Part shown: positions 2,820-20,512 of the stretch, piece by piece
Layout of the letters: each line of letters starts with the position of its first letter
Position numbering within the stretch: position 1 is the stretch's first letter
Source of the DNA: a virus
Taxonomy: Duplodnaviria; Caudoviricetes
DNA length: 37,913 nt
IMG/VR virus record: IMGVR_UViG_3300008085_000063
Location: 1-37,913 of that record
Reading direction: 5' to 3' (one strand)
Position numbers and translations under genes: made by a program
The notes under the pieces: generated by a model
What the model was told of the DNA's origin: nothing
The model's database searches: none
What the model saw: the letters and a program-made list of their open reading frames with translations, nothing else

Positions 2820-3027
2820 ATCTTCCCCTTTTATAATGGTTACGTTTCAGTTTGTCAAGCTTATTTGAATTCCCTATGTGGTAGTAGTGGCAGGAAAGGC
2901 AACGGTAGAAATCAAGTGATTGCTGCGCCCTCTCTATGTGCCGAGACCGTTTCATGCACCATACTTTCTTTTTTACTTCTTGATAAGTATGATATTTAAC
3001 CTTCCCGTCACACCCGACTCTAACCAT
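2782..3027 (-). CDS. Small basic putative zinc-binding protein
   Basis: CDGKVKY...FYRCLSCHYYHIG; overlaps both neighbours. Confidence 0.65.
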   Translation of the reverse strand: MVRVGCDGKVKYHTYQEVKKKVWCMKRSRHIERAQQSLDFYRCLSCHYYHIGNSNKLDKLKRNHYKRGRYDKRVSISIENN

Positions 3028-3721
3028 TACTGCCCTGCCCTAGTTTCAAAGCCCAACTGTCAGTGATATTCTTACTTTCTATGATATAGACCCCATCAGT
3101 ATCTAAATAACCGCCAGCAGGGGCAATAGTATCGTAGTTATTCATATAGACATCATCACCCAATAATTTATAAGTTGTAGCGACTTTTCCATCTATTTGG
3201 TTCAAGAGTTCTTCCATCGCACCTTGTTTGGTCTTACTAAGCATAATCAGAGCCGAGGCGATAACATGCTTAACTTTCACCGCTGCTTTCGACTCGTAAG
3301 TCGGGTCGATTATAAACCGACCAGCAATCTCAAGCACTTTAGCAGCCGCACCCTTCGGTCGGGACGACACCTCAGCGATTGCGCCCCGAATACCAGCAGT
3401 CGCCATCTCGGGCGCTGGGATATTGACTTTAGGTGGTGCCATCGGAGCAACAATAGCGTTTTTACTATTAGTGGCATTGACATTTATCGCATTTGGGTAG
3501 CAAATGATAAATCTAGGATACTCAACCTTGATATTCTCAGCCTGTTTGCCATCAACTCGCTCAATCGCCCGACGGATAGCAGATAATGACGTCTTTTCGT
3601 CGGCGATCGAGTAAATCAACTCCAAAATCGCATCTTCGTACTCGGTTTTGTCGTCGTCCTTGTAGGCTTTGATAAAGTCCTTCCAATGCCACTCTGCCAC
3701 ATCTGACAAATTGTAACCCAT
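3020..3721 (-). CDS. Hypothetical protein with a duplicated A..(R/E)..(ER/NQ).DGK helix motif; candidate terminase small subunit-like
   Basis: AIRRAIERVDGK and AMEELLNQIDGK; SD inside the end of the upstream gene. Function inferred only. Confidence 0.6.
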   Translation of the reverse strand: MGYNLSDVAEWHWKDFIKAYKDDDKTEYEDAILELIYSIADEKTSLSAIRRAIERVDGKQAENIKVEYPRFIICYPNAINVNATNSKNAIVAPMAPPKVNIPAPEMATAGIRGAIAEVSSRPKGAAAKVLEIAGRFIIDPTYESKAAVKVKHVIASALIMLSKTKQGAMEELLNQIDGKVATTYKLLGDDVYMNNYDTIAPAGGYLDTDGVYIIESKNITDSWALKLGQGSNG

Positions 3722-3722
3722 T

Positions 3723-5141
3723 TTACTTCTCCTCTTTCATATCAGTAAAGCCTAATTGCACCAACTCGTCATCTAAATCGTCGGTACTCATATTCTTCAA
3801 CTCAGTCGCAACCTCAGGGCCGACTTTCAAACCTATTCGCATAGGCATTTGTGTTAAGTCACCTGGCGCAGTTTTACTATCGTAAAAGAAATACCAGTTA
3901 ACCCGATTATCGCCAATCCGAACCGTACGGGGCTTATCGGCCGTAAACGGCTTAAACACTCGCCTAACGTTAGTGATACCAAGTGGCACCAAGCCATGCT
4001 CCGAACACCACTCTTGATAGTCGTTGTAAAGCTGGGCATAATTAGAAAACGCCTCAACCCCAGTAATAACCAAGTCTTTGCGATACGCCTCAGCCGAGTT
4101 AGACTCCTCGTCGTATTCGCTCTTAGCAACTTGAGTCGCTGGTGAAAACGCATAACGGTAGTGGTTGTCTCGTAAAAATTGTGCCTTATCGAGTATCAAA
4201 AATAGCAGTCCCGATAAAAATTCCGGCGTGAATGTCCGGTCGTTAAATTCCTCGTCAGCCTTAAATTTATTTGGGAACGGCACGATCACTGTACGGCGCC
4301 TAGTGCCATCAGTCTTATCGGCAAAAGTCGGGATGTTGTTGGCGTTAAAAATCGTATGAAAGTCAGCATCAATCATGAACCCTTCCTGGGAATGGAACTT
4401 GTGCACCGAAAACGGCTCGTGGGTACCAAGGGCTTTATAGCGCTCCGTGTCATTGACTCGAACCTCACTACTCTCTCGCACCAAGTTGCCAAGTATCGCG
4501 TTCAGTTTCAGCGCATCCCGCCCATCCTCGAGGGCACTGGTAGTGACGCTAGTCAAAAACGGTCCGACAATCCGATAAACGGCGTCAATAAGTGAGGACT
4601 TGCCATTCGCCCCGTCACCGACGAACCAAATCACACCCGTCGGGCGTCGGCTCATAAATAGTGGCGCCAATGCCTGTAAATAGTCTTCAACTAAGTCAGT
4701 GTCACCCTTCGCCAGATCAAGTAAAAACTTCTGTGGCGCCTCAACCTGGTCGACATCCGGCGTAATCGGCGACGAGTAAACAACCAGCTCGTCGTCGCGC
4801 ATCGGGCGCTGAACCAGCTTGTCCATCTCCCACACCGAGTAGTCACCTAGCAGTATCTTACCCGACGCCTCGGCCGTCACGTCAACCGCCTTCTTCTGGA
4901 AAGCATCATACAGTTCTTTGATATCCTGTATCTTCGGAAAGCCTAGGTAGGCGTAGCACAGCTCAGCGAAGCGATCGTAGTTCACCCTACCGAGCGCATT
5001 ATTCAAATAAAGCTGCTGCTTAAACCGAAAAAACCGATTGTTCATCGCCAACAGCTCGTATTTCTTCTGCTTAGCGTTAGCCGACCCGATATTCTCAGGT
5101 GTTTCCGGTGGTTGAACTACTATTGCAACGTTATCATTCAT
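3723..5141 (-). CDS. SF3 / D5-like (P4-primase C-terminal type) replicative helicase
   Basis: Walker A GDGANGKSS, IFNANNIP, DGTRRRTVIVPF, C-terminal winged helix (LYNDYQEWCSEHG); no clear primase catalytic domain. Confidence 0.88.
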   Translation of the reverse strand: MNDNVAIVVQPPETPENIGSANAKQKKYELLAMNNRFFRFKQQLYLNNALGRVNYDRFAELCYAYLGFPKIQDIKELYDAFQKKAVDVTAEASGKILLGDYSVWEMDKLVQRPMRDDELVVYSSPITPDVDQVEAPQKFLLDLAKGDTDLVEDYLQALAPLFMSRRPTGVIWFVGDGANGKSSLIDAVYRIVGPFLTSVTTSALEDGRDALKLNAILGNLVRESSEVRVNDTERYKALGTHEPFSVHKFHSQEGFMIDADFHTIFNANNIPTFADKTDGTRRRTVIVPFPNKFKADEEFNDRTFTPEFLSGLLFLILDKAQFLRDNHYRYAFSPATQVAKSEYDEESNSAEAYRKDLVITGVEAFSNYAQLYNDYQEWCSEHGLVPLGITNVRRVFKPFTADKPRTVRIGDNRVNWYFFYDSKTAPGDLTQMPMRIGLKVGPEVATELKNMSTDDLDDELVQLGFTDMKEEK

Positions 5142-5212
5142 TTTACCCCTATTCTAGTCAATGCAAAATTGTCACTACCCGCGACATTGGTTAGAGCACT
5201 GGAACTGCCACG

Positions 5213-5242
5213 ATAGTACCATGTAACTTAGTGCCGGCACAA
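5213..5242 (-). promoter_or_regulatory. Promoter of the helicase-gmd operon
   Basis: TTGTGC-18-TACTAT with TG extension; palindrome GTGCCGGCAC (5231-5240) overlaps the -35. Confidence 0.55.
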
Positions 5243-5296
5243 CGCTATATATATCAAAATTGGTAACGCTCAAACGCTATACTAGTTATGCCAGAA

Positions 5297-5331
5297 TATA
5301 GAAATCCCCCCACCGAGATACGATGGAGGGA
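5297..5331 (-). terminator. Intrinsic terminator for the sRNA and the 5368-6063 gene
   Basis: Stem UCCCUCCAUCG/CGGUGGGGGGA; its two G-U pairs form only on the minus strand; U-rich tail. Confidence 0.75.
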
Positions 5332-5345
5332 AGGCTCTAACCAGT
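5297..5345 (-). ncRNA. Predicted small RNA with a single-stranded 5' seed UGGUUAGAGCC and a terminator hairpin
   Basis: Own promoter at 5350-5378, no ORF, 11-bp stem followed by UUUCUAUAUU. Confidence 0.6.
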
Positions 5346-5349
5346 TATT

Positions 5350-5378
5350 ATTGTAGCATCTATGGTGTTATTTATCAA
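5350..5378 (-). promoter_or_regulatory. Sigma70-type promoter of the predicted sRNA
   Basis: TTGATA-17-TACAAT with TG extension. Confidence 0.7.
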
Positions 5379-6063
5379 GTATCTCGTAATACTTACGGTA
5401 TTTCGTTGGCAGACTGATATCAATGCCCTCCTCAGCCGCGTAGTTCTTAGCAAAATATTTAGCCTTATCCTCAGAGTCGAACGAGTCAATCTCCGTTGCA
5501 TAAAACCTGTTGCCGTTGTCTAGTAATGTCTGATTGGCTGGATCATCTTTGTCGATGCCAGTCATATCCTGAAAAGCTGGTATCATATCAGCTTTCTCTT
5601 TGTCGGACACTAGCAACGTTCTAGAGTCCTTCACCCCAGGCGGGTAAAGCGACGGCTCGACTTCATAAACTTGCCATCTGGTTTCCTTCTCTACTAATGG
5701 TCCTGGTGCAGTTTTTTCTTGTAGTGATGGCATTATATCTCGCATTGTCGGGCGATATTCTACTGGGGGGACCACCGCCTTATTAGGTTTGTTATCTACA
5801 AGTTCCTCTTTGGTTAGTTTTGTAATATCAATTCCAATAAATACCGATTTAGGTGATAATATAACTCCTCCGGCTTCATTGACCGCAACTTTCACCGGCT
5901 TTTTATATTCCTTAGTTTTTCTATCCCAGAAACGGCATAAATCACCTTTGATTCCTAAGCTGGATAAAAACATATAAGCTCTTTGCGGAGCTATACCAGC
6001 GGTTATTACATCGGCTACTAATTCGTGGTAAGTGTACTCTTTTTCTATATCTAAACGTATCAT
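5368..6063 (-). CDS. Hypothetical protein (231 aa), probably on a leaderless mRNA
   Basis: Long ORF, no SD, ATG 6 nt from a consensus -10. Confidence 0.8.
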   Translation of the reverse strand: MIRLDIEKEYTYHELVADVITAGIAPQRAYMFLSSLGIKGDLCRFWDRKTKEYKKPVKVAVNEAGGVILSPKSVFIGIDITKLTKEELVDNKPNKAVVPPVEYRPTMRDIMPSLQEKTAPGPLVEKETRWQVYEVEPSLYPPGVKDSRTLLVSDKEKADMIPAFQDMTGIDKDDPANQTLLDNGNRFYATEIDSFDSEDKAKYFAKNYAAEEGIDISLPTKYRKYYEILDK

Positions 6064-6069
6064 GTATTT

Positions 6070-6098
6070 AGTATAGGGTATATAGGTATATATGTCAA
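6070..6098 (-). promoter_or_regulatory. Strong leftward promoter
   Basis: TTGACA-17-TATACT. Confidence 0.85.
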
Positions 6099-6367
6099 TG
6101 CCCTAGTTGATTTTATTTTAAATTTCGGGGTTAATGTGATAATAAGGGTTCCCTCGTCCCCAAGATTACACCCCCCCCACTATCTACACCGCCACCACGC
6201 CGGGCCCGGCCCTTGCCCTGCGCTGCTCGCCCACTAACATAATAGACAGGTGTATTATATAAAACCCTATAATATAGCAGTGCTTGCGCCCTGGCTGCTG
6301 ATTCACCGCTAAGCAAGCGAAGCCGGTACTATCTCTTGCTTTTCTTCTAAAAATATTATTTATTGTG

Positions 6368-6660
6368 TTTTGTCATAACGAGTCAGTTATATCCATATAA
6401 CTCTAGGGGGTAGGTATATACCTTATATAATAGTATTGAATAAGTAAGGTACTTATGACATTTTGGAATAACAGAGGAAAATGGGGGTGTTGTGTCAATA
6501 ACTAGAGGCCCAAAACACCCCTGTTAGCCATTGACGTATCACCACTATCGTGTTATTGCTAGATTTGTCACAATGGGTTTTTTTGACATTTTTTGACATT
6601 CTTTTTGACATATTGACAAACCTTAATAATCTAACACAATTTAACTAAATACTATTGACA
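6368..6660. repeat. Cluster of TGACA/TGTCA iteron-like repeats; candidate replication origin
   Basis: TGACA at 6456, 6584, 6594, 6606, 6614, 6656; TGTCA at 6371, 6493, 6566; AT-rich non-coding strand-switch region. Confidence 0.55.
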
Positions 6661-6684
6661 AACTAACCCCATCCGTGCTATTAT
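6655..6684 (+). promoter_or_regulatory. Strong rightward early promoter
   Basis: TTGACA-18-TATTAT with TG extension. Confidence 0.75.
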
Positions 6685-6828
6685 TAGAGTATGAGAATAA
6701 ACCACTCCGACGGTAGCCATTAAGCGATACGCTAGGCACCATCTAAACGGCTCTAACCACAATAACAAGTGTATCCGGTAGCACTGCGAGGCTATCGGAT
6801 ACACACCAAGCCCAAGGAGGGCAACAAT

Positions 6829-7134
6829 ATGACAATAGCAAAAACAAACACTATAGACGCTATCGACGATATAGACAATCTATATATCGAGGCATCAAAC
6901 GTCAAGCGTAATCATACCCGCAAGACCAAGACGGCCAAACGTATTAAAGTTCGAGGCTCTGTCGAAGTGGCCCGGGACAATTACCGAGCAGCTAAACGCC
7001 TACAACGGGCTAACATCAAACGAGCGAAGCAGAATATCAAAAGTTATAAACTTTTGATTGTACAGGCTAAGACATCATACAAATTGATTAAGCTTAGCGA
7101 CGGCCACAAAAAGTGGTTTCAGTTCTGGAAATAA
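6829..7134 (+). CDS. Basic coiled-coil early protein ending KKWFQFWK
   Basis: AGGAGG SD before ATG 6829, preferred to GTG 6769. Confidence 0.8.
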   Translation: MTIAKTNTIDAIDDIDNLYIEASNVKRNHTRKTKTAKRIKVRGSVEVARDNYRAAKRLQRANIKRAKQNIKSYKLLIVQAKTSYKLIKLSDGHKKWFQFWK

Positions 7135-7168
7135 TATATAGCAAGTAGCGTCTAGGAGGCGCAAAACT

Positions 7169-7474
7169 ATGAGCAAATACAACGACAACGACATTAAAAT
7201 TATCAACACATCTTATCACAAGCACATGACGGATCGTCATCTAGCCCAGGTCAACTTTACGGCCGGAATACCACGCAATATGTGGGACGAGTATACCAGC
7301 AAAACATCTATGGACCACCAAAATCTTGGCCGCATCCGCTTTATGCAATTAGTTGGGCCAGACAACGAGAGCGATGGGGTGGTGGTCTTTGGCCGTGTCT
7401 CGCATGGCTACGGCTACGAGATATCACAAGACATCAGTGGCGCGATTGAGTTTAGCAAAGGGGTGCAAAAATAA
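7169..7474 (+). CDS. Hypothetical protein
   Basis: AGGAGG SD; operon packing. Confidence 0.8.
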   Translation: MSKYNDNDIKIINTSYHKHMTDRHLAQVNFTAGIPRNMWDEYTSKTSMDHQNLGRIRFMQLVGPDNESDGVVVFGRVSHGYGYEISQDISGAIEFSKGVQK

Positions 7475-7475
7475 T

Positions 7476-7757
7476 ATGGCGTACACTTGCCCATACTGTA
7501 AAGATGTAGATTTTAGTTATAACAACGGCAAATGTATGCGCTGCGGTCATAAACGTGAACGCGATGACGCCAACATTAAAGAAATAATCGCACCTAGCAA
7601 ACGCTTAAACGTGGCCCAGGCCATTGCCGACAACCCAACACTTAACAGTACCGAGTTAGCCCAAAAGCTAGCGGGTGGCTATAGTGGCGGTTCATACCCT
7701 AAATACACCACAATCTTATTGAAAATTAATGAGATAAAAGGAGTAACAAAGTCATGA
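7476..7757 (+). CDS. Zinc-ribbon protein with possible C-terminal HTH
   Basis: CPYC...CMRC; ATG 7476 follows the upstream stop. Confidence 0.75.
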   Translation: MAYTCPYCKDVDFSYNNGKCMRCGHKRERDDANIKEIIAPSKRLNVAQAIADNPTLNSTELAQKLAGGYSGGSYPKYTTILLKINEIKGVTKS

Positions 7758-7867
7758 CCGCCCACAACCCACCAAAAGGCATCGTTCGCAAATATATGCG
7801 CGACCAATTACGCGGCGAGCGCAAGCACGCCAAGACCATCAAAACTAATCTAAAAAGGAGTAAATAA
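7754..7867 (+). CDS. 37-aa basic peptide (MTAHNPPKGIVRKYMRDQLRGERKH...), not in the ORF track
   Basis: AGGAG SD; ATGA and TAATG overlaps on either side. Confidence 0.7.
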   Translation: MTAHNPPKGIVRKYMRDQLRGERKHAKTIKTNLKRSK

Positions 7868-8067
7868 TGGTCATACAAATCATTATCCACGACGGTATCA
7901 AAACCCGCACCCGGACTTATCGCGACATCGTACCCGCTAACGGCGGATTGGCGCGGCTACGCGAGGGCTTTCAGGCTCAGGCAGCGTTTAGTAAGTGGGG
8001 CGAGATGGTGCAACTAAAAGGTAAAGAGCGGCTAGTGCTATCTAGCTTCGGAAAGGTTGAAAAATGA
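7867..8067 (+). CDS. Hypothetical protein
   Basis: AGGAG SD; translationally coupled. Confidence 0.75.
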   Translation: MVIQIIIHDGIKTRTRTYRDIVPANGGLARLREGFQAQAAFSKWGEMVQLKGKERLVLSSFGKVEK

Positions 8068-8444
8068 GTAAACAGGCTTGGCGATATGCAGCCCTTGAAA
8101 ACAATACACGGCTGATTGAGGCGTTTTGCAAAAAGCACCGCTTAACAATCGAATACCTGAACGATGGCTATCAGCTCCGCATTAACGGCGTGATTGATAT
8201 CTACCCGGTACGCCTTAAATATCACTACTTGAAAAACGGGCAGCGGGGCGAATTTGAAACTATGGAACATCTTGACTTGAGTATCTTCGATAATGTTATA
8301 ACAGTCCGCAATGGTGTAATGAGTACGCCGCCTAATGACGGTATTTATACACCTGATTTTAGCATGCCGAGCCGTGTATTAAAAAACTTACCAAAGCCAA
8401 CCACGAGTAAACGCAAATGGTGGCAGATATGGAGGAAAAAATAA
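8064..8444 (+). CDS. Hypothetical protein ending KRKWWQIWRKK
   Basis: ATGA overlap with the upstream gene. Confidence 0.75.
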   Translation: MSKQAWRYAALENNTRLIEAFCKKHRLTIEYLNDGYQLRINGVIDIYPVRLKYHYLKNGQRGEFETMEHLDLSIFDNVITVRNGVMSTPPNDGIYTPDFSMPSRVLKNLPKPTTSKRKWWQIWRKK

Positions 8445-8800
8445 TGCGCGTATATATTAACGAACCAATAGTGCAACCACTCCCGGTCTTCTTTAACTTC
8501 ATGGGCGGCCTAGACTTCATTGGAAGTGTCCAAAAGCTAAACAAGCTCACGGCTGCACCACGCCACTGGCGAGGACGCAAGATACCGATTCGTAACGGCT
8601 ATGCGGCACCTCACTATATACCAATTACTGTTTACCAAGACGACATTTTGGTATACTGTAACCATATGAATCAGGAAATCGAGCAGGTCAGTTTCTACGC
8701 CGGTCTTGATGACGAATATACTCGGCCTGCTTCTGTATGCCAGAAATGTGGCGCCGGATGGGACGAAAACGGCGAGCAGGTGTTAAATACTTCGAATTAG
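8444..8800 (+). CDS. Hypothetical protein with a CNH...CQKC putative zinc site
   Basis: GGAGG SD; TAATG overlap at 8444. Confidence 0.7.
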   Translation: MRVYINEPIVQPLPVFFNFMGGLDFIGSVQKLNKLTAAPRHWRGRKIPIRNGYAAPHYIPITVYQDDILVYCNHMNQEIEQVSFYAGLDDEYTRPASVCQKCGAGWDENGEQVLNTSN

Positions 8801-8964
8801 AAGATGCTGCATATCACTCCAATGATAGTAGGGCATCATTACAGCTAGATGCAGTTAACGCTATTATGAAACTAATCGACACCTACACCACCAACCTCCA
8901 AGCCGAGTCCTACAAACAAGGCTTTATAGCTGGTAGTATTGAACAAATAAATAAGGGGGAATAA
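8737..8964 (+). CDS. Hypothetical protein (start uncertain)
   Basis: Fills the operon gap; ESYKQGFIAG motif common in small phage proteins. Confidence 0.55.
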   Translation: MPEMWRRMGRKRRAGVKYFELEDAAYHSNDSRASLQLDAVNAIMKLIDTYTTNLQAESYKQGFIAGSIEQINKGE

Positions 8965-8965
8965 T

Positions 8966-9175
8966 ATGAGTAAAACATTAATTGATAGGCTATATATTTA
9001 TGAAAAGTATAATATTCACCTAGATAATATGAAGGCTACTGAGATAAGTGAATTAATTGATTTATTAGTCGAGGAGATGGCTTATCGTATTGATAACCCG
9101 AATGGCAGTTCTAACCCAGAGGCGAAAATTATGACCCACCTAAAACCAACCACTAATACAGGAAGTGAGGAGTAG
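8966..9175 (+). CDS. Hypothetical protein
   Basis: GGGGG SD; tight packing. Confidence 0.7.
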   Translation: MSKTLIDRLYIYEKYNIHLDNMKATEISELIDLLVEEMAYRIDNPNGSSNPEAKIMTHLKPTTNTGSEE

Positions 9176-12217: not shown

Positions 12218-12461
12218 GTTTATTGAAGCAAGGCCCAATGTGTTCGTTAATGTCGATCATATCATTTGGGCTGGGTATACTAGGACCGAAGACGGTATGG
12301 AGTTTACATTGCGCTTGTCGGGTAATTTCAGTGTGAGTGTCCTTGATATAGATAAAATACAATCTATCAAGAAACTATTGACAAACCAACCAGACCAGAG
12401 TACAATAAAAACAAATCAGGACTCTAACCAACCTGAGAAAGGAAAAAAGAATGCTTTATAA
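12210..12461 (+). CDS. Hypothetical protein
   Basis: GGAG SD before ATG 12210. Confidence 0.7.
   Translation: MSKFIEARPNVFVNVDHIIWAGYTRTEDGMEFTLRLSGNFSVSVLDIDKIQSIKKLLTNQPDQSTIKTNQDSNQPEKGKKNAL
12378..12406 (+). promoter_or_regulatory. Internal promoter for the exonuclease-SSB operon
   Basis: TTGACA-17-TACAAT; followed by a CTCTAACCA box at 12422-12430. Confidence 0.8.
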
Positions 12462-19089: not shown

Positions 19090-19757
19090 TATAAGTTACT
19101 CATATTAAAAATATAATCGTAGGTTAATGTTGCCCGATTTGTCCAGGCCAAGGCATAAGTTGTTCTGGTGGCGTTATTACCTATGTTAGCTGCACGTTTA
19201 GTCAAACCAGATGTTTCATCAATTTCATAGATGAGGTATGTGCCGTCTAGTTTAGCGTGCCCTAGATAAGTAATAGGGGCTACTTCCTCAACGTCAATGA
19301 TTTGATATTGTTTAAGAGACGCTTGCAGGGTGGCTTCGGTGGCTAGACCTGTTTCGGGGTCAGCTGTTGGATTGGCGACTGTCACCGTTCCACTTACTGG
19401 TTGAGTGGCAGGGAAATTAGAAACTGATACTTGATGATTATCGGGTAGTTGTTTAGCTGAGGTAGCGAGGGCTGAAACATCGGTAGGGTTGGTAATTGTG
19501 ACACCGTGACCGTCGGCTAATTGTTTAGCAGCAGTAGCAAAGCCAGAAATTGCGGCAGGTGGGGTCAGTGTAACTACTTGGGCAGCAGAAAGTGGGTATT
19601 CGGTCGGTAGGTTGTTGACTGCTACTGCGTGCCCATCGGGCAATTGGTTAGCGGCAGTCGCTAGGGCAGAGGTATCGACTGTTGGGATACTCTCAACGGC
19701 TGTCTTGACTTCTTGAACTGATGCGTCTAGGGCTAAAGCGCCGAATAAATTTATCAT
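19089..19757 (-). CDS. Fibre-like virion protein with three internal ATxAxQLxDxHxV repeats
   Basis: Repeats visible in the translation; C-terminal WTNRATLTY motif. Confidence 0.7.
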   Translation of the reverse strand: MINLFGALALDASVQEVKTAVESIPTVDTSALATAANQLPDGHAVAVNNLPTEYPLSAAQVVTLTPPAAISGFATAAKQLADGHGVTITNPTDVSALATSAKQLPDNHQVSVSNFPATQPVSGTVTVANPTADPETGLATEATLQASLKQYQIIDVEEVAPITYLGHAKLDGTYLIYEIDETSGLTKRAANIGNNATRTTYALAWTNRATLTYDYIFNMSNL

Positions 19758-20512
19758 ACATTATCACTTTCTGTTAATAACCACATTGTTACTATATTAC
19801 CATCTATATCGGTTTGAACCCATAGCGACGGCTGGGTAACTGTCGGCTGGGTGACTTGGATGAATACGTTATCGTTACCTGGATCACCTTGTGGCCCTGG
19901 TACAATTGAGTCAGCCCCGGTATCACCTTTGGCCTTAGCATTAACGTCATAATCGACTAATAATCGTGTCCCTGTAACAGGTGCCGTAACCATCGTGAAA
20001 CCACCAGAAACCTCGGTGTAATCTTGGCCGCCGCCCATTAAACGAATACCATTCTTAAATACTTTGAGCGCTCCAGTAGTATAGACTTCGGCTGTAGTGA
20101 AGTTAACGTTAGACCCATTGATAGCTCCGCCTGGTACCTCATTCGGTACACCAACGAATATATCGGTACCGAAAGCTTCAATAGCTGCGGCTAGTAGATC
20201 AGCCCATAGTGTAGTCGGTTTGATGACAATAATATCACCTTCTTTATTGCCGCTGTCAGTGTATCCAGGTGCTAGCTCGTCAATCGTGATTACTGAACCG
20301 GCAAGATGACCTTTGAACACAACGTATTCACCATCAATAAATCTATCCGTGGTTGGGTCAACAGTGCCGGCCATCGCAATAAAGTAGGTATTCCAGTTTG
20401 TTGGGGTAGTATTATTAAACGCCATATCACCGACTCCACGAGGCTCAACAACAATACAGCGAACACTCTCGCCGTTACCGTCAGATGCGTGCAGATAATC
20501 GGTTAGAGGCAT
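19754..20512 (-). CDS. Tail fibre A: anchor domain, Ig-like domain and short collagen-like segment
   Basis: N-terminus paralogous to 22369-23103; GPQGDPG. Confidence 0.7.
   Translation of the reverse strand: MPLTDYLHASDGNGESVRCIVVEPRGVGDMAFNNTTPTNWNTYFIAMAGTVDPTTDRFIDGEYVVFKGHLAGSVITIDELAPGYTDSGNKEGDIIVIKPTTLWADLLAAAIEAFGTDIFVGVPNEVPGGAINGSNVNFTTAEVYTTGALKVFKNGIRLMGGGQDYTEVSGGFTMVTAPVTGTRLLVDYDVNAKAKGDTGADSIVPGPQGDPGNDNVFIQVTQPTVTQPSLWVQTDIDGNIVTMWLLTESDNV

Follow-up and report, generated by a model that had tools for sequence, protein, structure and literature searches.

To our knowledge, RNA-based phage immunity has been studied experimentally in just a few enterobacterial cases (C4, CI and sar). 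The termination caused by the CI RNA of phage P4 is Rho-dependent. Small RNAs of the Hfq class consist of a 5′ seed plus an intrinsic terminator, with IstR-1/tisB as a standby-site blocker, and in FasX-type activation the RNA protects the mRNA 5′ end or opens a leader structure.

Trans-acting antisense repressors of phages are known (PMC12197685; PMC4825925). The C4 RNA of P1 and P7 is phage-encoded and blocks translation in trans via short complementary boxes, its specificities underlying heteroimmunity (PMC12197685), and P4 CI is described as an RNA-only control of phage replication genes through short leader boxes (PMC4825925). The operators and stoperators of L5-type mycobacteriophages are short asymmetric sites oriented with transcription (PMC9283540).

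The locus described here lies in a 37.9-kb virus record (the window, that is, the whole stretch of 37,913 nucleotides that was analysed), the DNA of which was detected in groundwater and aquifer sequencing runs, the three best of which may be its source; no RNA run was among those listed. A minus-strand unit of this phage is predicted to encode a small RNA which, by analogy, likely works like P1 C4 and P4 CI, being a member of neither. Covariance-model matches to C4 and related Rfam families were absent for the window RNA, for eight related loci and for a second RNA from a sister clade. Complementarity to short boxes is present, together with co-variation, and a pairing in trans of the kind known from C4 is predicted. 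The single target of C4 is the mRNA of an antirepressor, close to the ribosome-binding site, whereas the predicted targets of the window RNA are the leaders of an early, an exonuclease and a helicase operon, and the Shine-Dalgarno (SD) sequence was not covered by the box in the five leaders tested from the window and its relative L002. Unlike in C4, the seed is at the 5′ end of the predicted primary transcript. The closer analogue of C4 is the RNA of the sister clade, the hairpin loop of which displays a two-part seed and the boxes of which precede short ORFs.

The boxes are positioned before primase-helicase, exonuclease and SSB genes, for which a control like that by P4 CI is predicted, and the order promoter, box, seed, terminator and replication genes in another relative, L139, is similar to that of the P4 immunity region. 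In contrast, P4 CI is processed from the transcript that it regulates (seqA, seqC), whereas in the window, L002 and L139 a separate predicted promoter immediately precedes the seed, and the predicted targets of the window RNA are on both strands. P4 CI causes premature termination; past the window boxes no conserved intrinsic terminator was found, and Rho was found in 0/61 genomes of the candidate host class. The analogy with P4 and P1 drawn in a preliminary description of the locus likely holds for the way of working, the fit to P4 being loose if that class is the host.

The minimal seed-terminator anatomy, with pairing predicted some way upstream of the SD, resembles that of Hfq-class sRNAs and IstR-1/tisB; the differences are that the predicted targets belong to the phage itself, its operons sharing a tag built into their leaders, that the tail of the RNA masks part of the seed, and that Hfq was found in none of the 61 genomes. 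L5-type stoperators comprise more than 20 protein-bound DNA sites, all oriented along transcription, whereas the window has three boxes and one inverted copy in an RNA gene-like unit, with five to six copies of the motif, the one at the RNA promoter being inverted. No account of the window or sister RNAs was found among the papers listed in literature searches; 38 phage sRNAs without a function are given in Supplement S1 of PMC12197685.

The window encodes a primase-helicase, an SNF2 helicase, an exonuclease, a gp2.5-like SSB, a GDP-mannose dehydratase, an amidase, a capsid protein and a terminase. In agreement with the preliminary description, which had noted the lack of a recognisable CI repressor or integrase, PHROGs and Pfam searches of the 49 ORFs, most of them without a family, revealed no integrase, CI-type repressor or antirepressor, nor was any HTH or RHH family match found. 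Annotated phages gave no DNA match to positions 3000-9000 and no match to the capsid, and the helicase gave just 24-28% matches among the 20 matches listed; by these searches, no annotated phage is related to the window. In four DNA runs the coverage was patchy, and informative variants were not seen. A 12-nt tandem repeat at positions 1-80 probably lies within a coding region cut by the record end. About 20 helicases (P0002-P0022) are at 72-82% identity. Three close helicase homologues (P0014, P0019 and P0024) lie on contigs that exceed the phage in length (195, 85 and 64 kb) and are possibly integrated copies or chimeric contigs.

The only evidence on the host came from binning, which points to the class of a Saccharibacteria MAG as a candidate. 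Helicases of the family were found in MAGs labelled Saccharibacteria, Dechloromonas and 'bacterium', in 3/401 genomes of the candidate class (the centre genome included) and in 1/401 genomes of a phylum sample, this one being the centre genome itself. One of the class-genome helicases lies on a stand-alone phage contig of 37,354 bp, the ends of which share sequence, with RNA and boxes as in genome G006. The window seed pattern was present in 0/401 genomes of the class. The anti-SD is kept in the class, and, with Rho found in none of the 61 genomes, a Rho-dependent, P4-style termination is unlikely if this class is the host.

The predicted small RNA and its leader boxes

The features of the RNA unit and of the three leaders were as follows (window coordinates).

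5350..5378, minus strand: sigma70-type promoter of the small RNA, TTGATA-17-TACAAT with TG extension, conserved in L002 and L139
5297..5344, minus strand: predicted small RNA of ~46 nt, its ends placed from promoter spacing and the U-tract
5333..5343, minus strand: 5′ seed UGGUUAGAGCC (sequence, folding)
5295..5331, minus strand: terminator hairpin 5331-5305 plus imperfect U-tract (terminator scan, folding)
5368..6063, minus strand: upstream leaderless 231-aa ORF, promoter 6098-6070, no family
5213..5249, minus strand: helicase-operon promoter, TATAGCG upstream element and TTGTGC-18-TACTAT with TG, inferred from conservation
5188..5197, minus strand: box in the primase-helicase operon leader, 15 nt past the -10, kept in L002
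3723..5141, minus strand: primase-helicase gene, the first gene past the helicase-leader box
6655..6684, plus strand: first early promoter, TTGACA-18-TATTAT with TG
6709..6746, plus strand: structured 5′ part of the early leader (folding; compensatory pair versus L002)
6749..6759, plus strand: early-leader box, 11/11 complementary, then a 13-14-bp hairpin at 6769-6803
12378..12406, plus strand: promoter of the exonuclease-HNH-SSB operon, TTGACA-17-TACAAT
12419..12430, plus strand: exonuclease-leader box, 9 nt extended by GG over a 1-nt bulge

The elements of the unit claimed from inspection were all recovered: the promoter with its extended -10 by promoter scan (5378..5350), the stem of 11 pairs at 5331..5305, which was the first of 26 in the terminator scan listing, and the strand-specific fold, with -22.2 kcal/mol (z -3.4) for the minus strand vs -12.2 (z -1.9) for the plus strand. 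The unit is also free of ORFs between promoter and terminator, a 54-aa alternative-frame ORF (5337-5501) having its stop codon inside the seed. The first 4 nt of the seed are predicted to be free and the following 5 to be paired with the tail of the RNA. As a sequence anatomy, the feature is confirmed. Rfam gave no gathering-level match for the whole window or for 5130-5450, just weak chance-level hits.

The 231-aa ORF ends within the -35 of the small-RNA promoter, the two sharing nucleotides of the stop codon, and the mRNA of that ORF may thus be terminated at the hairpin as well. At this position L002 has a 93-aa ORF, to which tblastn gave no match and which showed weak feature matches to CcdA/DUF5371 clusters (score at most 0.80, a lead only). 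No related loci were obtained with the 231-aa ORF as query, nor any usable family from atlas searches with the two upstream ORFs (window and L002). Leaderless genes pointing away from the early operon are found at 6063-6098 (minus strand) of the window, L002:8290-8330 and L139:7210-7245; their proteins differ in each genome, and they are candidate regulators.

An exhaustive motif scan of the window bore out the five copies of the 9-mer CTCTAACCA that had been counted by eye, at 3018 (plus), 5196 (minus), 5335 (plus, the seed), 6751 (plus) and 12422 (plus), and the three leader boxes were found where they had been placed. The motif CTCTAACC has 6 copies vs 0.99 expected, a number reached in 0/100 shuffles. 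When both strands of the window were scanned for duplexes, the three best non-self partners of the seed were the three leader boxes (early box -20.4, exonuclease box -17.4 and helicase box -17.4 kcal/mol); the fourth-best site, in coding sequence, was nearly equal to two of the boxes at -17.3 kcal/mol. In a test devised after the motif had been seen, 17/20,000 shuffled RNAs found complements of 9 nt in two out of the five remaining leaders with strong promoters. The same 2-of-5-leader level was reached by 40/14,552 overlapping 41-nt windows of the genome, 21 of them motif copies and 19 from five unrelated places.

The boxes begin 12-15 nt past the -10 at two of the three window promoters. The helicase promoter is weak and absent from the promoter-scan listing; it was placed by its conservation with L002 and L139. 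The early leader fold has a z of -4.8, with one compensatory pair in 12 vs L002, which for two sequences is not significant alone. A hairpin of 5 bp (12416-12436), conserved in L002, holds the 9-nt core of the exonuclease box within its 11-nt loop, where the core is predicted to be exposed (unpaired probability 0.98-0.99).

The copy at 3018, in coding sequence, is seed-sense on its own mRNA and is thus not a target. An extra 8-nt box at 20501-20508 (minus strand), directly past the start codon of the ORF 19754-20512, is also in coding sequence, with a predicted duplex of just -12.6 kcal/mol. An intrinsic attenuator past the helicase box was discarded, as L002 does not keep the hairpin 5186-5170.

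Seed and boxes in relatives, and a parallel pair in a sister clade

L002 has ~80% DNA identity to the window in shared regions and retains the promoter, the seed, the hairpin and all three boxes; it differs by a DNA methylase-like ORF inserted before the helicase and by the changed upstream ORF. Its three leader boxes are again the three best non-self duplex partners of the seed. The box cores are identical at 9/9 positions, and the next 25 nt downstream at 8 (helicase box), 13 and 16 positions; on the upstream side, the early and exonuclease boxes have conserved flanks as well (24/25 and 23/25). Another record, L108, encodes proteins 100% identical to those of the window and was left out of the count of relatives.

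L139, with a helicase 38% identical to that of the window, carries a promoter-seed-hairpin unit with an altered seed, UGUUAGUGAGCC. Its helicase-leader box matches this altered seed at 12/12 positions and lies 14 nt past the -10 of the conserved helicase promoter. Conservation and co-variation of seed and boxes, to which the preliminary description had looked in related phages, were found, with all four sites kept in L002 and seed and helicase box changed together in L139; co-variation is supported at the sequence level by this single case. The second-best non-self site of the L139 seed lies in the early leader and matches imperfectly (G-U/bulged); apart from the helicase-leader box the contig showed no perfect box, and none at an exonuclease-type leader. 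The L139 box precedes the RNA and shares its strand, which makes pairing in cis possible, and in one transcript box and seed fold together beside the terminator (-38 kcal/mol). No ORF of at least 50 aa ends at the L139 RNA promoter. In the helicase tree, which was a quick tree only, L139 is a long branch of unsure place. The hairpins of L002 and L139 differ in sequence from that of the window and the stem stays paired; pairing of the 3′ half of the seed with the tail is likewise predicted in each of the three RNAs, through sequences that differ, and leaves 4 nt as a toehold.

No fourth genome with the window seed type was found by pattern, protein-based, metagenome- and genome-contig scans or by profile search, the latter from sequence only over 93 sources (1.17 Mb). 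One pattern scan of viral contigs gave 104 loci, none with the unit. A second gave 41 loci, of which L002 and the L139 contig alone were relevant, and a third gave 110, comprising L002, the L139 contig, the sister-type phage L307 and unrelated phages. The motif was absent at the promoters of the exonuclease relatives L228 and L229. Neither RNA unit was seen in nine relatives (G002, G003, G009, G010 and G014-G018) by a pipeline that also missed the L139 unit and the boxes of G008.

An unbiased search for promoter-terminator units in helicase relatives revealed a second RNA in a sister clade (type A), of ~55 nt, with the loop GCGUUCC-N2-5-UUGC. The complement of this loop, GCAA-N0-6-GGAACGC, forms a box downstream of early and middle promoters. 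All five near-complete sister genomes have two matches in box orientation and one opposite-strand seed (reversed control, 0), with 9/10 boxes downstream of a TTGACA promoter; in two other sets of five genomes this arrangement was found in 1/5 and 0/5. The pattern was counted over 147 fetched loci (redundant, 1.75 Mb), made up of family loci and two drawn in by the pattern itself. The 45 distinct matches were 20 boxes near promoters, 18 opposite-strand seeds and 7 that were neither, vs 6 matches of the reversed pattern, 0 of them downstream of a promoter. The boxes lie 11-17 nt past the -10 (19/20 at 11-13 nt) with a 0-6-nt spacer, and the seeds 27-31 nt past their own promoter, inside the hairpin, with a 2-5-nt spacer. 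Twelve seeds were known before the seed-based scan, which gave 20 loci, 18 with clear family proteins, and which adds part of the seed count.

The type A hairpin stem has compensatory changes at 9/13 pairs, whereas the seed is invariant. The RNA lies kilobases away from both boxes, and in L154, L166, L173 and L190 the box ends at or within 2 nt of the start codon. As in the window, the middle operon is downstream of an SNF2 helicase gene; that of L183 encodes an AAA ATPase, an RHH gene and a primase-helicase. Carriers of type A form one group in the helicase tree, separate from that of the window. Rfam gave no match for the sister-clade RNA nor for eight related loci. As the sister RNA has no sequence homology to the window RNA, it backs the regulatory logic and not the window RNA directly.

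Type A, at L172:9760-9830 and 17 other loci, is sampled better than the window RNA. Mostly ~250 nt past it sits a second conserved ORF-free unit, type B, at L172:10025-10095 and also in L154, L167, L173, L174, L183, L185, L186, L188, L192 and L224. It begins with GUGAG or GUGAA at the 5′ end, followed by a hairpin that has AGAGG/AGGGG in its loop, a run of A and a terminator whose loop reads UGCGAG; a search for its targets among the leaders found none.

Proposed pairing in trans and alternative explanations

Since the seed is the exact complement of the leader tag, and RNA and tag are kept or changed together in relatives, the RNA likely turns the operons down. With moderate confidence, it is proposed from sequence comparison that the predicted RNA (5378-5295) represses the early, exonuclease-SSB and primase-helicase operons by pairing in trans with their leader boxes, through blocked ribosome loading or decay. 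The free 5′ UGGU of the RNA would nucleate on a box shown single-stranded near the mRNA 5′ end, the tail of the RNA would be displaced and a 10-12-bp duplex would form. Less firmly, this duplex might lower expression independently of Hfq and Rho, either because ribosomes could no longer load on the A/C-rich leader or because decay would be set off. When the box was blocked in silico, SD accessibility was unchanged in 5/5 leaders (window and L002), with box-to-SD gaps of 8-54 nt; simple occlusion or sequestering of the SD is therefore not supported for the window seed type. The purpose is most likely to hold down the lytic genes in a non-integrating carrier state, which would also confer superinfection immunity; alternatively, it may be a timed shut-off during lytic growth. 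Of the claim that a trans-acting RNA coordinates the operons by leader pairing, the pairing is backed by conservation in L002, by co-variation in L139 (one case) and by the RNA/box pair of the sister clade.

The same pairing in trans could instead activate, the RNA protecting the mRNA 5′ end or opening the leader structure as FasX does. sRNAs pairing in leaders are able to stimulate expression (PMC12360218), no SD masking is predicted, and the boxes, shortly past the -10 both in the window (12-15 nt at 2/3 promoters) and in the sister clade (11-13 nt in 19/20 cases), are consequently close to the mRNA 5′ end. Activation is nonetheless unlikely, as the box covers the ribosome-binding region in the four sister leaders where it reaches the start codon or ends up to 2 nt from it, and as a phage RNA boosting its own strong sigma70 early promoters would have no obvious purpose.

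The position of the boxes, fixed relative to the promoter and not to the start codon as for a DNA operator, is a point against the proposed RNA pairing and the best one for the boxes being asymmetric operators or stoperators of a phage repressor. The inverted copy would then be a further operator and the hairpin, which in both the window and L002 comes after the stop of a leaderless ORF, would simply end the upstream gene. Orientation-dependent asymmetric sites exist in mycobacteriophages (PMC9283540), and possible binding proteins are the L002 ORF, from its weak CcdA/DUF5371 feature matches (at most 0.80, a lead only), and the RHH gene of the sister clade. Against this, a promoter-terminator unit carries the copy inverted relative to transcription in the window, L002, L139 and the five near-complete sister genomes; the half-site spacing of the sister pair varies (spacers of 0-6 nt for boxes and of 2-5 nt for seeds), which does not resemble a site bound by protein; and the boxes are identical beside different upstream ORFs in the window and L002, with no ORF of at least 50 aa ending at the RNA promoter of L139. 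The variable sister spacing on both sides, the loop display, the inverted copy in a promoter-terminator unit and the identical boxes beside different ORFs favour RNA-RNA pairing, and control by a DNA operator is distinctly unlikely.

It is very unlikely that the seed acts in cis alone, whether by contributing to an attenuator when transcription reads through into the helicase operon or as the 3′ UTR of the upstream gene. The imperfect U-tract, the same-strand location of the unit ahead of the helicase operon and the joint fold of the L139 box and seed next to the terminator (-38 kcal/mol) agree with a cis role, which would leave unexplained the opposite-strand boxes 1.4 and 7 kb away that are conserved in L002, and a sister RNA kilobases from both its boxes.

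Chance, with a short motif conserved since it lies inside conserved promoter regions, is highly improbable. The matches are of 9-11 nt and were picked after the fact, the copies at 3018 and 20501 are in coding sequence with weak or wrong-strand pairing, and L002 is ~80% identical in shared regions; against this stand the motif shuffles (0/100 reaching 6), the RNA shuffles (17/20,000), the boxes as best duplex partners, the fall of conservation just past the boxes and the co-variation in L139.

Least credible of all, an anti-boxA RNA cancelling antitermination at boxA-like NusB/NusE sites is not supported, since the window boxes resemble the boxA consensus GYTCTTTAANA (PMC5725501) in part and fail it, the sister box is not boxA-like, and, with NusB present in 60/61 genomes of the candidate host class, 0/30 of its rRNA leaders had CTCTAACC, GCTC-N0-3-TAAC or the GGAACGC core, making such action unlikely if this class is the host.

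Taking pairing in trans as the preferred reading, it is tentatively suggested that a ~37-kb family of non-integrating phages, probably of Saccharibacteria (CPR), may have replaced the protein repressor by exchangeable RNA/leader-tag pairs, with at least two unrelated seeds at equivalent operons in different clades and without Hfq or Rho. If true, one RNA of less than 60 nt would set both carrier state and immunity group. This would be a multi-operon RNA switch in an uncultured phage family without annotated phage relatives, possibly infecting CPR hosts in which Hfq and Rho were not found (0/61), and would bear on the way in which phages that have neither integrase nor repressor persist. Equivalent operons served by two unrelated seed/tag pairs amount to a natural swap experiment. 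As the parts are short and the promoters of sigma70 type, the idea is testable in a laboratory host without phage culture.

Other motifs in the family

An ACAG(A/G)GGT-type motif, possibly a family-wide DNA site, recurs at window positions 6460-6470 and 6517-6527 of the divergent control region, in the divergent regions of L113, L119, L123, L137 and L149, in the spacers of type A promoters and in the type B loop. Between divergent operons, TGTCT(A/C)CA-type repeats, direct as well as inverted, form clusters (L139:6920-7140, L113:4215-4460, and in L123, L137, L141, L149 and L151) that are likely replication origins.

A GCAAGCAAAG-type motif was found shortly past promoters in the helicase leaders of L111, L113, L115, L118, L135 and L141 and in the early leader of L139, all relatives without the type A unit, and the similar AGTTAGCAAGCAA past promoters of the unrelated phages L274, L285, L302, L314 and L371. 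Most rRNA leaders of the candidate class (L431-L460, upstream of 16S) have a boxA-like (C/G)TT(T)GA..AA motif followed by a GTGC-type motif, and GTGCAGTG is present in 12/30 of them. The early leader of L113 contains repeated TTCAACC motifs. Upstream of the helicase operon, L113 (4940-5072) and L118 (3660-3780) share a structured promoter-to-terminator segment that is possibly another non-coding RNA.
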